Origin: a virus
Lineage: Duplodnaviria > Heunggongvirae > Uroviricota > Caudoviricetes
Strand: one strand, 5' to 3'
Virus record (IMG/VR): IMGVR_UViG_2529292885_000013
DNA: 6,083 bases
Shown: piece by piece, positions 1-6,083 of the stretch
Numbering within the stretch: the first letter of the stretch is position 1
How the letters are laid out: each line of letters starts with the position of its first letter
Notes under the pieces: model-generated
The model's input: only the letters and a program-made list of their open reading frames with translations
Told to the model about the DNA's origin: nothing
Databases searched by the model: none
Made by a program: the position numbers and the translations under genes

Positions 1-538
1 ATTTCTTCCTGTGTTGCGGCTTCCCGGACTGGTAACGCAGCACCTGCTGGCTGAGGAAAGGCCTTACCATCATTTTTCGTTACCGGCGCGGCTTTCGGAT
101 CTGCTGGTAAATTACCCCCCGACATGCAGTAACGAAATTTACCGTTCTGATTAACGCGTGCCAGCCGCCCCGTTGCGGTTACCACCGCCAGCGTGGAAGC
201 AACCTTGCGAGTACTGACGCCGAACTTACCCGCCAGTTCCTCACACGTTTTAGCACCATCCTGACCGATAAACTCAACCATCATGTCTGCGGTAACTTTT
301 GGAGCGACCTCTTCGGTTACCACATCCGGCGCTTCAGGTTGTAGTGCCTGCCCTTCGGTTACCCCGGCTTCACCTTCGACAGCCAGAAACCAGGTGTGAC
401 CCGTTTTATCAACAACGCCATTTTTTTGAGTTCCCACAGTTCGTTAAGAACTTCTTCACGGCTGATATCAAGCCGCGCCGCCAGTTCAACAGAATTGGCT
501 TTTCCCATCGCTTTCAGTGCATGCAATACAGTTTCCAT
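1..538 (-). pseudogene. Frameshifted, 5'-complete but 3'-truncated-by-window gene for a prophage protein with tandem winged-helix-like domains (N-terminal 59-codon frame 538..359; continuation in the -1 frame from ~427 to position 1 and beyond)
   Basis: Minus-strand ATG at 538 with GAGGT 9 nt upstream, 25 nt after the DnaC-like stop. It translates [39 protein letters not shown], then stops at 359 in that frame. Re-reading one base at the A7 run (T7 on plus, 421-427) gives ...[20 protein letters not shown]..., which completes a winged-helix fold and stays open for >170 codons to the window edge. A second similar domain follows (MMVEFIGQDGAKTCEELAGKFGVSTRKVASTLAVVTATGRLARVNQNGKFRYCM). Absent from the ORF track because neither frame is a complete long ORF. 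Confidence 0.5.
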
Positions 539-563
539 CGAAAATTTACCTCGTCAAAAATTC

Positions 564-1304
564 TCACATACCCTGACGTCCAACGTTTGACCGCCAGCTC
601 TCCCAGTTAAAATTCACCCAACGACCACCATTCATGGTCATACGGTCCATCACCCGATCTCCGAGGAGTGTGCTCATCGCTGCGTGATTCAGGTTCGTCA
701 GCATTCCGACACTACGCATCGAAGCCGTTCTGCGGTCGACTATCTGGTTCAGCGTGACCTGCTCGTTGCGCGTATCCCGCTGCATGCCAATTTCATCAAG
801 GACCAGAAGGTCAACTCCACAAAGCTCCTGTAAAAATTTTTCCCCGGACTGGCCGTTGTCGTAGCCGTCATGCAACACGCTCATGACATCGGACACGGTG
901 ACGATAATCACGCTTCTCCCCTTCGCCATCAGCCGATTGCCAATCGCTGCTGCCAGGTGATTTTTACCGGTACCAGGTTTACCGCTGAACACGAAGTTTG
1001 TACATCCGGTCATCAATTCATCGGCAATGGATTTCGCCTGGCTCAGAGCATGGCGCTGACCGTCGTTCTGCACCCGGTAGTTCCCGAATGAGCACTTCCT
1101 GTGAAGCGGCTGGATGCCCGCACGGTTCAGGATTTTTTCAACCCGCACCTGATGATTCAGGCGGTTAATCTCCTCGCTGCGTTTTCGTCCTTCAGCAAGT
1201 TGCCATTCCCGCCACTCCTCCACCGTCCGGTACGGTGGAACCGCCCCCTGTGGTGCAAGTCTGCGAATACGTTCAAGAACCCCAACTGCCGCAATGTTTT
1301 TCAT
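564..1304 (-). CDS. DnaC-like replicative helicase loader (lambda P-equivalent, IstB/DnaC AAA+ ATPase)
   Basis: 246-aa ORF with Walker A (FSGKPGTGKNHLAAAIG) and Walker B (DLLVLDEIG) motifs. Start ATG lies 6 nt after the stop of the upstream O-like gene with a G-rich SD, an operon arrangement typical of lambdoid replication modules. Similar in size and position to Rac YdaV (from memory). Confidence 0.9.
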   Translation of the reverse strand: MKNIAAVGVLERIRRLAPQGAVPPYRTVEEWREWQLAEGRKRSEEINRLNHQVRVEKILNRAGIQPLHRKCSFGNYRVQNDGQRHALSQAKSIADELMTGCTNFVFSGKPGTGKNHLAAAIGNRLMAKGRSVIIVTVSDVMSVLHDGYDNGQSGEKFLQELCGVDLLVLDEIGMQRDTRNEQVTLNQIVDRRTASMRSVGMLTNLNHAAMSTLLGDRVMDRMTMNGGRWVNFNWESWRSNVGRQGM

Positions 1305-3117: not shown

Positions 3118-3489
3118 ATGCAAAAAAAAGAAATTCGCCGTTTACGTCTCAAGGAGTGGTTTAAAGATAAAACTCTGCCACCCAAAGAGAAGAGCTACCT
3201 ATCTCAACTAATGAGTGGGAGAGCCTCGTTTGGAGAAAAGGCTGCCAGAAGAATAGAGCAAACATACGGGATGCCGGAAGGGTATCTGGATGCGGAATAC
3301 GCAGAACAACCGGGGGGTTCTCCACCACATGCAGGGTTAACGTCTAATCAACTGGAATTATTGCAGATTTTTTCAGCCTTCCCTGAGGATGAGCAACGCC
3401 AGATAATCAGCGAGTTAAAGCAGAAAAAAGAATCAATGGAAGATCTCATAGCGAGATGGATTGCGGCGCAAAAATGCCGCCGCGCCTGA
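3118..3489 (+). CDS. paaR: CI-like HTH (XRE-family) repressor; candidate PaaR-type regulator of the downstream ParE toxin-antitoxin pair and candidate prophage repressor
   Basis: 123 aa from the ATG at 3118 (MQKKEIRRLRLKEWF...). HTH segment SYLSQLMSGRASFGEKAARRIEQTYGMPEGYLD. Located exactly at the cI position, divergent from the cro-like gene. No SD upstream and a -10 hexamer 6 nt before the ATG suggest a leaderless mRNA. The in-frame upstream ATG at 3055 (144 aa) lies inside the operator region and lacks an SD. Confidence 0.7.
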   Translation: MQKKEIRRLRLKEWFKDKTLPPKEKSYLSQLMSGRASFGEKAARRIEQTYGMPEGYLDAEYAEQPGGSPPHAGLTSNQLELLQIFSAFPEDEQRQIISELKQKKESMEDLIARWIAAQKCRRA

Positions 3490-3509: not shown

Positions 3510-3701
3510 ATGAATAGAGCCCTTTCACCAATGGTTTCTGAATTTGAAACCATTGAACAAGAAAACAGTTACAACGAATGGCTGCGTGCGAAAGTAGCAA
3601 CGAGCCTTGCAGATCCGCGCCCAGCAATTCCCCATGACGAAGTTGAGCGCAGAATGGCAGAACGCTTTGCTAAGATGCGCAAGGAACGGAGCAAGCAGTA
3701 A
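3510..3701 (+). CDS. paaA: Small antitoxin of a ParE-family toxin-antitoxin pair (PaaA-like, ParE-associated antitoxin)
   Basis: 63-aa ORF from the ATG at 3510 with a GGAGG SD 5 nt upstream (MNRALSPMVSEFETIEQENSYNEWLRAKVATSLADPRPAIPHDEVERRMAERFAKMRKERSKQ). Its stop TAA (3699-3701) is 1 nt before the toxin ATG (3703), indicating translational coupling. Small, charged and helix-prone. Matches my recollection of the 63-aa PaaA2 antitoxin of E. coli O157:H7; paralogue number (1 vs 2) cannot be resolved here. Confidence 0.7.
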   Translation: MNRALSPMVSEFETIEQENSYNEWLRAKVATSLADPRPAIPHDEVERRMAERFAKMRKERSKQ

Positions 3702-3702
3702 A

Positions 3703-3981
3703 ATGTTACCCGTGTTATGGCTTGAAAGCGCAGATACCGACCTAGATGATATAACTAGTTATATTGCTCGTTTCGACATAGATGCGGCTGAACGCTTATG
3801 GCAGCGATTAAGGGGTTGTGTGCTGCCGTTATCCGAACATCCGTATTTATACCCACCAAGCGACAGAGTACCTGGCTTGCGTGAGATTGTAGCCCACCCT
3901 AACTATATAATTCTATACCGCGTAACAACATCAAGCGTTGAAGTAGTAAACGTGATCCACGCAAGACGCCAGTTTCCCTAA
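3703..3981 (+). CDS. parE: ParE/RelE-superfamily toxin (ParE-like)
   Basis: 92-aa ORF from the ATG at 3703 (MLPVLWLESADTDLDDITSYIARFDIDAAERLWQRLRGCVLPLSEHPYLYPPSDRVPGLREIVAHPNYIILYRVTTSSVEVVNVIHARRQFP). Shows the ParE hallmarks: N-terminal W...A..DL..I..YI, central P.LG...R...LRE, C-terminal Y.I.YRV......V.V..V.HARR. Tightly coupled to the upstream antitoxin gene. Confidence 0.85.
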   Translation: MLPVLWLESADTDLDDITSYIARFDIDAAERLWQRLRGCVLPLSEHPYLYPPSDRVPGLREIVAHPNYIILYRVTTSSVEVVNVIHARRQFP

Positions 3982-4411: not shown

Positions 4412-4612
4412 TTACTTCAGAAAGTCTCTGGTGAGTGCACCGAAGATATTGTCAACGATTTCGTCATCGAACTGCGAGGACTCATCTTCAGTTACAAGGT
4501 GACCACAATTTTTGCAGATGGCTCCCGCGAAACTGTCAGAGCCCTGCGGCTTAAAGGATGTGTCAAAGACTTCGCCACCACATTCTGGGCAAGAAAACTT
4601 GATTGTATTCAT
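4412..4612 (-). CDS. Small zinc-ribbon protein (CxxC...CxxC), hypothetical
   Basis: 66 aa from the ATG at 4612 (the ORF track starts 2 codons earlier at a TTG). SD AGGA 8 nt upstream. Two Cys pairs (CPEC and CKNC) about 20 residues apart. Codon usage is typical E. coli, whereas the overlapping plus-strand ORF 4277..4633 is rich in rare AGA/AGG/CGA codons. Confidence 0.55.
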   Translation of the reverse strand: MNTIKFSCPECGGEVFDTSFKPQGSDSFAGAICKNCGHLVTEDESSQFDDEIVDNIFGALTRDFLK

Positions 4613-4705
4613 AACCAATTTCCTCTCGAGTAACAGACCCCTCAGAGGATACCACCTCGCCTGACGTGGTTAAAAAGCAGGCAACGCTAACCACAAGGAG
4701 CCGAC

Positions 4706-4924: not shown

Positions 4925-4946
4925 TAGCTAACCAACGAGGCTAATA

Positions 4947-5354
4947 ATGGAATTTAAAGATTTACCAACGCCATTACAGGAAATGGCATCGAATATAGTT
5001 CGTTCACAACTGGCTACTCTTGACCTTAGTACCGCAGAAAAAGAAACCATCGATAATATGGTTCGTAATGTGCGCAATGCTTTTTCTGGGCTATATGGTT
5101 CTGATAATCAAAAGCAGGAAAGCGATGTTAATAAACGGGTAATTTCTGTTTGCGTGAATGGCCATGTTCTTTCATCAATCAAAACAGAAACGGCGACAGT
5201 CTTCGATTGCCTTTGCATTGTACAGAGCCTTGTTGATGCCCTGTTTCGTTCAGTGAATTTAGAAAATGATGCAAATCTGCGAGGGCGCATAATAGCACAT
5301 CCATATGCACATACTTTAGGCTCTGTGGATATCAAAGATCCCACAAATCTTTAA
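4947..5354 (+). CDS. Hypothetical 135-aa protein, AT-rich (moron-like) gene
   Basis: ATG at 4947 with GAGG SD 6 nt upstream. Long ORF in a locally AT-rich block (roughly 38-40% GC by eye versus over 50% in flanks). No family recognised. Confidence 0.6.
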   Translation: MEFKDLPTPLQEMASNIVRSQLATLDLSTAEKETIDNMVRNVRNAFSGLYGSDNQKQESDVNKRVISVCVNGHVLSSIKTETATVFDCLCIVQSLVDALFRSVNLENDANLRGRIIAHPYAHTLGSVDIKDPTNL

Positions 5355-5565
5355 TGAAATAGTTAACGCGAATTGTACTTGCTCTTTCGGTTGCTTTCAG
5401 AATACGCGTTGAAACTGCTGGCGGTAATTTGGTATTCCATTTATTAAAATCATGCCCGGGAAAGTACTCTTCGAAAATACTTTTAACTGCAGACTCGCCT
5501 ATTGAAATGCTGCTTACCATGCGATTTTGATAAAGGCATTTAGCAATAAGAGTTGATTTTAACAT
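5332..5565 (-). CDS. Hypothetical 77-aa protein, convergent with and overlapping the 3' end of the 135-aa gene by 23 bp
   Basis: ATG at 5565 with strong SD AGGAGG (rev-comp of 5570-5575) 4 nt upstream. AT-rich codons consistent with the neighbouring gene. No family recognised. Confidence 0.5.
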   Translation of the reverse strand: MLKSTLIAKCLYQNRMVSSISIGESAVKSIFEEYFPGHDFNKWNTKLPPAVSTRILKATERASTIRVNYFIKDLWDL

Positions 5566-6083
5566 TCACCCTCCTGAGGGTTGGTAATTAAGGAGTTCTC
5601 CACGGGTGAAGTGGAGTGCGTGCGCCGGACACGGGTGAACATCCGGCACTGACAGTTTACTGAAAGGATATTTCTCTGAAAAGTCAGAGCATAACGCGAA
5701 AGCGCACGGCGAGGTTGCTGGTTCATAGATAGCCTGTCGTTAAATTTTCGTCGACCGTGCGCTTCCGGTTGTGGCACTCCGCGAAATGGCGCAGCGGTAA
5801 GTATGGCGGGGTTATTCCTTCCCCGTTGAGGACACCGGGTTGTCAGGTTGACCATACGCTTAAGTGACAACCCCGCTGCAACGCCCTCTGTTATCAATTT
5901 TCTGGTGACGTTTGGCGGCATCTGTTTGCCCATGAACTGATGTCCGCCCTTTTTAAAGTGAATTTTGTGATGCAGTGAATGCGGCTAAGCGCACGCGGAA
6001 CAGTTAAAGCTAAAAACAGTGTTATGGGTGGATTCTCTGTATCCGGCGTTAATTGTTAACTGGTTAACGTCACCTGGAGGCAC

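Follow-up and report, generated by a model that had tools for sequence, protein, structure and literature searches.

A one-base deletion in an A8 tract very probably made a DUF1627/YdaW-family gene of prophage Sp12 a lineage-fixed pseudogene in typical Escherichia coli O157:H7

We found that the first 538 nucleotides of a 6,083-nucleotide stretch of viral DNA (IMG/VR record IMGVR_UViG_2529292885_000013; hereafter the window) carry, on the minus strand, a copy of the DUF1627/YdaW-family gene of the lambdoid prophage Sp12 of E. coli O157:H7. This copy is very likely a genuine, lineage-fixed pseudogene that arose by one slipped-strand deletion, from A8 to A7, in the ancestor of typical O157:H7. 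The frameshift is already public, as it is annotated in RefSeq, and the feature is otherwise ordinary.

The minus-strand ATG at 538-536 opens a 59-codon ORF (359..538) that ends at a TAA at 361-359. A GAGG Shine-Dalgarno-like element, read from the sequence, lies 10 nt upstream of this ATG (549..552, minus strand). The truncated ORF consists of 39 native codons, 20 out-of-frame codons and the stop codon, and the site of the 1-bp deletion is an A7 homopolymer at 421..427 (minus strand; T7 on the plus strand), located by a regular-expression scan of the window. A reading of this DNA made from the sequence alone had described an ORF from ATG 538 ending 20 codons after an A7 run at plus 421-427; the scan confirmed the run, and the translation confirmed the 20 out-of-frame codons after the second lysine. 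The rest of the family's coding sequence (1..420, minus strand) lies in the -1 frame relative to the ATG, and this frame, one base back from the run, is free of stops as far as window position 1. The sequence-only reading had also stated that the shifted frame stays open to the window edge for more than 170 codons; it is open to the edge, but its length from the run is 140 codons (179 from the ATG), corresponding to residues 40-179 of 256. The gene runs 232 nt, or 77 codons, beyond window position 1, as completed from EDL933. Inserting one A and adding these 232 nt from EDL933 yielded a 256-aa protein, in which the ancestral A8 tract encodes Lys-Lys-Asn (AAA AAA AAT; codons Lys38-Lys39-Asn40).

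Many complete E. coli O157:H7 chromosomes contain a locus that matches window positions 1-600 with 100% identity. The 538 nt of the gene that lie in the window are identical to Sakai Sp12, and positions 1..420 are identical to both Sakai and EDL933. The Sakai record places the region inside an annotated 'prophage Sp12, lambda-like phage', and in EDL933 a 770-nt 'DUF1627 domain-containing protein' gene is tagged by PGAP/RefSeq as a frameshifted pseudogene. The repaired translation matched all 155 profile positions of Pfam PF07789 (DUF1627) with 331.6 bits (cut-off 28.1), and it matched PHROG 630 with E = 1.6e-131 (residues 1-252 of the 253-position profile). Because the two halves jointly match DUF1627 and PHROG 630 end to end, the split-gene pattern exceeds what would be expected by chance. 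The repaired translation is 100% identical to intact IMG/VR prophage alleles (L003-L011) and 90% identical to the protein of phage PhiR5_2. Intact family members are single ORFs of ~253-256 aa with an N-terminal HTH domain and DUF1627, whereas the window copy as encoded departs from this layout by stopping after 59 codons; it is therefore a pseudogene member of the DUF1627/YdaW family.

The position of the gene is also that of the family. A gene for a DnaC-type helicase loader (ATP-binding protein; 564..1304, minus strand) adjoins it upstream, and this neighbour identifies its position as the ydaW slot of the Rac/Sp12-type replication module; Asadulghani et al. count Sp12 among the prophages with a DnaC-type loader (PMC2669165). 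The early-operon gene order of cro-like, YdaT-like, O-like, DnaC-like, DUF1627/YdaW and DUF977 genes is common to the window, EDL933, Sakai, DEC5B, PhiR5_2 and K-12 Rac, where the equivalent order is ydaS-ydaT-ydaU-ydaV-ydaW. The gene thus follows the replication genes directly in the lambdoid early-right operon, as other family members do. Intact members (WP_000450876.1 and the PhiR5_2 protein) occupy the same slot, after the helicase loader and before DUF977; unlike them, the window copy is one A short of the A8 tract and yields no full protein by standard decoding. The suggestion from the sequence alone that a gene downstream of the DnaC-like gene stands in the ydaW position proved right, as K-12 ydaW follows the DnaC-like ydaV. 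The same reading called K-12 ydaW a pseudogene; the gene is incomplete, but the RefSeq copy is annotated as a CDS and not as a pseudogene. K-12 Rac ydaW (b1361) holds the same position and is 58% identical over residues 1-154. In contrast to the window copy, it reads in frame through the tract, which is AAAAAG there. Its homology ends at residue 154 of a 186-aa CDS that adjoins the rzpR pseudogene and trkG, and we take its damage to be a deletion rather than a frameshift. A literature search for ECs2274 found nothing, and published mentions of DUF1627 were confined to its use as a synteny marker close to the PasA and PasC sRNAs. The only hint of function that we found for the family is that over-expressed K-12 ydaW scored in a screen as a blocker of the retron-Sen2 toxin RcaT (bioRxiv 10.1101/2020.06.22.160242).

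Comparison with intact copies identified the lesion. Phage PhiR5_2 carries the same sequence with A8, read as a single 256-aa ORF with the junction ...ELKKNGVVDK..., and the syntenic prophage in O55:H7 strain DEC5B and in PV15-279, a beta-glucuronidase-positive (GUD+) O157:H7 strain, contains an intact 771-nt gene (WP_000450876.1). The missing A is the only difference between the EDL933 gene and these two intact genes; thus, the lesion is an A8-to-A7 deletion. The earlier proposal that the run is one A short and that 8 A would restore the frame is borne out by the A8 at the exact position in PhiR5_2 and by the O55:H7 and GUD+ copies, which differ by that base. The one-base difference from the intact A8 genes of DEC5B and PV15-279, together with the PGAP label 'frameshifted', also favours the option of a true pseudogene that the proposal had listed. 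GUD+ strains form a cluster separate from typical O157:H7, which fits the stepwise evolution model (PMC6256406), and in the present sample the deletion would have arisen after typical O157:H7 split from the GUD+ lineage. A frameshift in uidA likewise separates typical O157:H7 from GUD+ O157:H7 and O55:H7 (PMC6256406), and among the strains compared the A8-to-A7 change is distributed in the same way.

We searched 5,426 complete E. coli genomes by exact match with 69- to 72-mers that differed only in run length. The A7 version (70-mer) was present in 287 genomes, A8 in 164, A9 in one (strain MBT-5) and A6 in none; none of the same 5,426 genomes had A7 on the other common flank variant (GGGAGCTC). 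All sampled A7 records that name a serotype are O157:H7. Many of the 287 records name none, and the assignment of A7 to one clade is based on the serotype-named subset and the identical flanks. The A8 genomes include O26, O121:H19, O55:H7 and GUD+ O157:H7 strains, among others. Homologues elsewhere are predominantly in frame: all 24 in the phage collection gave single uninterrupted tblastn matches, 77 of 80 IMG/VR loci are in frame (9 of them with 100% protein identity and A8) while the other 3 have A7, and the best 120 of 2,240 protein clusters are mostly 253-256 aa. The comparison of run length across homologous prophages, which the sequence-only reading had proposed as a check, therefore gave A8 in the in-frame syntenic copies and A7 on this allele only. 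That reading had also named homologues naturally ending after the first domain as an observation that would count against a frameshift; the norm is instead full length, ~253-256 aa. The sole exact A9 version of the allele lies at 2508603-2508674 of NZ_CP058682.2 (MBT-5), a chromosome that also carries an A8 copy at 2487596; the A9 may reflect either a true +1 slip or a fault in the assembly.

In an alignment of 24 homologues, the most conserved block is the nearly invariant N32-L52, which starts with NELWELK, and the frameshift splits this block after Lys39. Residues 2-57 can be read as a winged-helix unit from weak matches to HTH_11, MarR_2 and HTH_DeoR in Pfam and to MntR and Z-alpha in the PDB. 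HTH_11 scored 24.3 bits on the N-terminal domain, below its cut-off of 25, and the PDB profile matches to MntR and Z-alpha were weak (E = 0.04-0.6) and extended through the 'wing'; PF08279 is precomputed for many homologues. On this winged-helix reading, helix 3 lies at about residues 27-39 with the wing after it, and the 59-aa product would keep the three helices, lose the wing and gain 20 unrelated residues. The second domain (residues ~84-140) gave sub-threshold matches to HTH_PafC (25 bits, cut-off 32) and FeoC (20.5 bits, cut-off 21). A low-confidence AF2 model (pLDDT 48.9, pTM 0.23) shows two three-helix units and a long C-terminal helix at 197-255; the model is poor because the homologues in the 24-sequence alignment are all >83% identical. 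BLASTP found no alignment between the N-terminal and second units and hhalign gave E = 0.013 with a probability of 3%, so an internal duplication of the HTH unit is not demonstrated. The weak profile matches and the low-confidence model leave the description of the protein as a tandem winged helix, as first suggested from the sequence, plausible at most. The 59-position profile PHROG 16668 matches residues 1-53 of the truncated ORF, which indicates that fragments of the 59-aa type have been called as ORFs elsewhere. We rejected the 59-aa product as a functional mini-HTH protein, because the invariant wing block is missing from it and its last 20 residues are unrelated. Several models of the family span only one piece of the protein, and PF07789, with its 155 positions, covers residues 91-245; frameshifted or truncated copies may have supplied some of the ORF calls behind PF07789, PHROG 11856 and PHROG 16668.

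Homopolymers are a classic site of base-calling indels, and a sequencing or assembly error, in which one base of a true A8 tract was lost in base calling, had been one of the options raised from the sequence alone. It is almost certainly not the explanation. The isolated A9 in MBT-5 could be such an error, but the identical A7 70-mer recurs in 287 complete genomes, assembled independently by many laboratories on many platforms; the independent assemblies of EDL933, TW14359, EC4115 and Xuzhou21 and the Sakai record carry A7, and relatives outside typical O157:H7 consistently carry A8. Another reading is a phase-variable contingency locus, in which frequent switching among A7, A8 and A9 would turn the gene on and off within populations. 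Although A8 is long enough for a raised rate of replication slippage and two off-length states exist (A7 and the single A9), tract length follows lineage, with A7 stable in its 287 genomes and A8 in 164 as well as in A8 alleles on other flanks. A6 is absent and A9 occurs once, many alleles have no homopolymer at all, and typical O157:H7 strain TR01 has in another prophage an intact A8 paralogue that stayed A8; such switching is highly improbable. A natural layout of two genes, with a small HTH protein followed by an independently started DUF1627 protein, is more improbable still. The Sakai annotation fits that layout in calling only the downstream piece of the gene, ECs_2274, a 222-aa 'hypothetical protein' that starts at a -1-frame GTG (435..437, minus strand), as do profiles confined to the C-terminal part (PF07789, 155 positions; PHROG 11856, 160 positions) or the N-terminal part (PHROG 16668, 59 positions). 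However, the 25 nt upstream of the GTG at 437-435 (GCCGTGAAGAAGTTCTTAACGAACT) contain no Shine-Dalgarno sequence, and there is none at a usable distance before the other candidate start, the ATG-ATG at 284-279. Moreover, the break interrupts the most conserved block midway, a single-ORF allele matches the nucleotide sequence at every other position, and single ORFs of ~253-256 aa are the rule. The GTG at 437-435 is probably a device of the annotation, not a true start codon. No convincing start serves the remaining 217 codons, which most likely are not translated at a useful level.

Recoding is a further reading of the gene: the A7 run would act as a slippery site from which a useful fraction of full-length protein is made beside the 59-aa product. 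If tRNA-Lys slipped by -1 from the second AAA, or if the mRNA gained an extra A, the wild-type sequence ...LKKNGVV... would be restored exactly. A transcriptome-wide survey in E. coli showed that RNA polymerase inserts bases in A/T runs at a rate that rises exponentially with run length (PMC5574713), and genes broken by a frameshift can be rescued in part where they contain slippery runs (PMC1088944). The same survey, however, found no reading frame restored by a transcription error (PMC5574713), and in comparative analysis slippage is evident from about 9 A/T, sometimes 8 (PMC1088944), so that the A7 run falls short of the 8-9 discussed there. The slip motif, C-AAA-AAA-A (CTC AAA AAA ATG), would permit a single P-site slip but does not satisfy the X-XXY-YYZ tandem heptamer rule. 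The surrounding RNA folded no better than shuffled sequence (-25.9 versus a shuffle mean of -27.4 kcal/mol, z = +0.42, for the 111 nt at window 340-450, minus strand), with no hairpin in this segment beginning 5-9 nt from the A7 run, and an Rfam scan of the whole window returned no family at the gathering threshold. The conserved two-frame arrangement expected of a programmed frameshift gene is absent among homologues: 24 of 24 phage copies and 77 of 80 IMG/VR loci are in frame, full-length clusters dominate the best 120 of 2,240, and the frameshifted arrangement occurs on one allele, in one lineage where a serotype is named, one base away from an intact ancestor. The tract itself is interrupted in 45 of the 80 IMG/VR loci and in an E. 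albertii locus, which read AAAAGAAAT or AAAAGAAAA (Lys-Arg-Asn or Lys-Arg-Lys; the AAAAGAAAT allele encodes Lys-Arg-Asn), and Rac-type alleles read AAAAAGGCT. These interruptions in many alleles suggest that the homopolymer is a by-product of encoding Lys-Lys-Asn with AAA codons rather than a conserved element; a scan of genome contigs gave four loci, all in Escherichia, to which the tract comparison there is confined. Known slippage or -1 frameshift genes (Thermus dnaX with A9, Shigella mxiE, and insertion sequences with 9A/8A) likewise have an A-run at the junction of two frames, and one extra A in the mRNA would fuse the frames in these genes as in the window gene (PMC1088944). By contrast, the dnaX, mxiE and IS sites conserve both the two-frame layout and the run, which is 8-9 or longer, whereas the window gene has a run of 7 that is not conserved in the family and is a one-lineage derivative of an in-frame gene. 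Functional recoding is thus very unlikely, and the A7 tract is neither a conserved recoding site nor a fast-switching tract.

We therefore return to a lineage-fixed pseudogene as the best explanation. The intact Sp12 gene would encode one 256-aa protein whose N-terminal HTH/winged-helix-like domain is followed by a second HTH-like domain and then by a long C-terminal helix. Slipped-strand mispairing during replication would have removed one A from the A8 tract in the ancestor of typical (beta-glucuronidase-negative) O157:H7. Translation from the normal ATG would then leave the frame at codon 40 and end 20 codons on, yielding a 59-aa fragment broken between the predicted third (recognition-type) helix, which immediately precedes the break, and the conserved 'wing', and typical O157:H7 would have inherited the deletion clonally. 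The loss was probably neutral. Its tolerance would be explained by two circumstances: Sp12 is already decaying and cannot be excised, and other prophages of O157:H7 still carry intact paralogues. Asadulghani et al. called Sp12 defective, with its integrase and repressor disrupted and the prophage not excisable (PMC2669165), and the Sakai record shows an Sp12 integrase pseudogene. The copy of the prophage in O55:H7 DEC5B has independent internal stops in the loader, the Q antiterminator and TerB (L087 6156-6896, 11231-11920 and 12557-12985, respectively) but keeps the DUF1627/YdaW gene intact; different lineages broke different genes. In typical O157:H7, the stop at codon 60 may have a polar effect on the downstream DUF977 and DUF551 genes and lower their expression. 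The A7 copies that we saw are nearly identical, which leaves too little time for mutations in the downstream frame that would prove a loss of constraint. There is a slim chance that slippage restores a small but meaningful amount of full-length protein, or that the loss itself was selected during the emergence of typical O157:H7, for example as the removal of a prophage regulator or an anti-defence factor. If either were true, the deletion would amount to a lineage marker with a functional effect, not to neutral decay.

Elsewhere in the window, a 634-bp segment (4945-5578) is absent from the Sp12 prophages of EDL933, DEC5B and PV15-279. It holds two small ORFs, of 135 aa (4947-5354, plus strand) and 77 aa (5332-5565, minus strand), and matches with 100% identity the spacer between ydfC and dicB in another O157:H7 prophage, located beside ompW in strain ECP17-1298. 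The last 505 bases of the window (5579-6083) are only 95% identical to EDL933 Sp12. This segment and the divergent end indicate that the prophage in the window is a mosaic or recombinant Sp12 variant. The ompW-site prophage of ECP17-1298 also carries a DUF1627 paralogue (L091 4741-5421), annotated as 226 aa from a TTG start inside the first HTH (LAARLD...), which appears to be N-terminally truncated. A cI-like gene of 123 aa (3118-3489, plus strand) begins ATG-C-AAAAAAAA and contains a second 8-A tract at 3122-3129; the Sp12 repressor has been described as disrupted (Asadulghani et al., PMC2669165). Genes for a RelB-family antitoxin (3510-3701, plus strand) and a RelE/ParE-family toxin (3703-3981, plus strand), both annotated in EDL933, adjoin this repressor gene. 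A 68-aa Cys-rich ORF (4412-4618, minus strand) with the pattern CPECGG...CKNCG corresponds to the 'ECs_2282 family putative zinc-binding protein' of EDL933 and Sakai.

The finding matters little beyond bookkeeping. The split ORFs of older O157 annotation, such as Sakai ECs_2274, are pieces of one 256-aa gene, and the A7 gene provides a clean negative example for screens of homopolymer recoding sites. Its state separates O55:H7 and GUD+ O157:H7, which have the intact gene, from typical O157:H7, in which it is broken, and the gene could therefore serve as a simple lineage marker like uidA; uidA is a core gene with a known phenotype, whereas the window gene is a prophage gene of unknown function. 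For Sp12 itself, the A7 deletion is one more datable lesion in the decay of the prophage.
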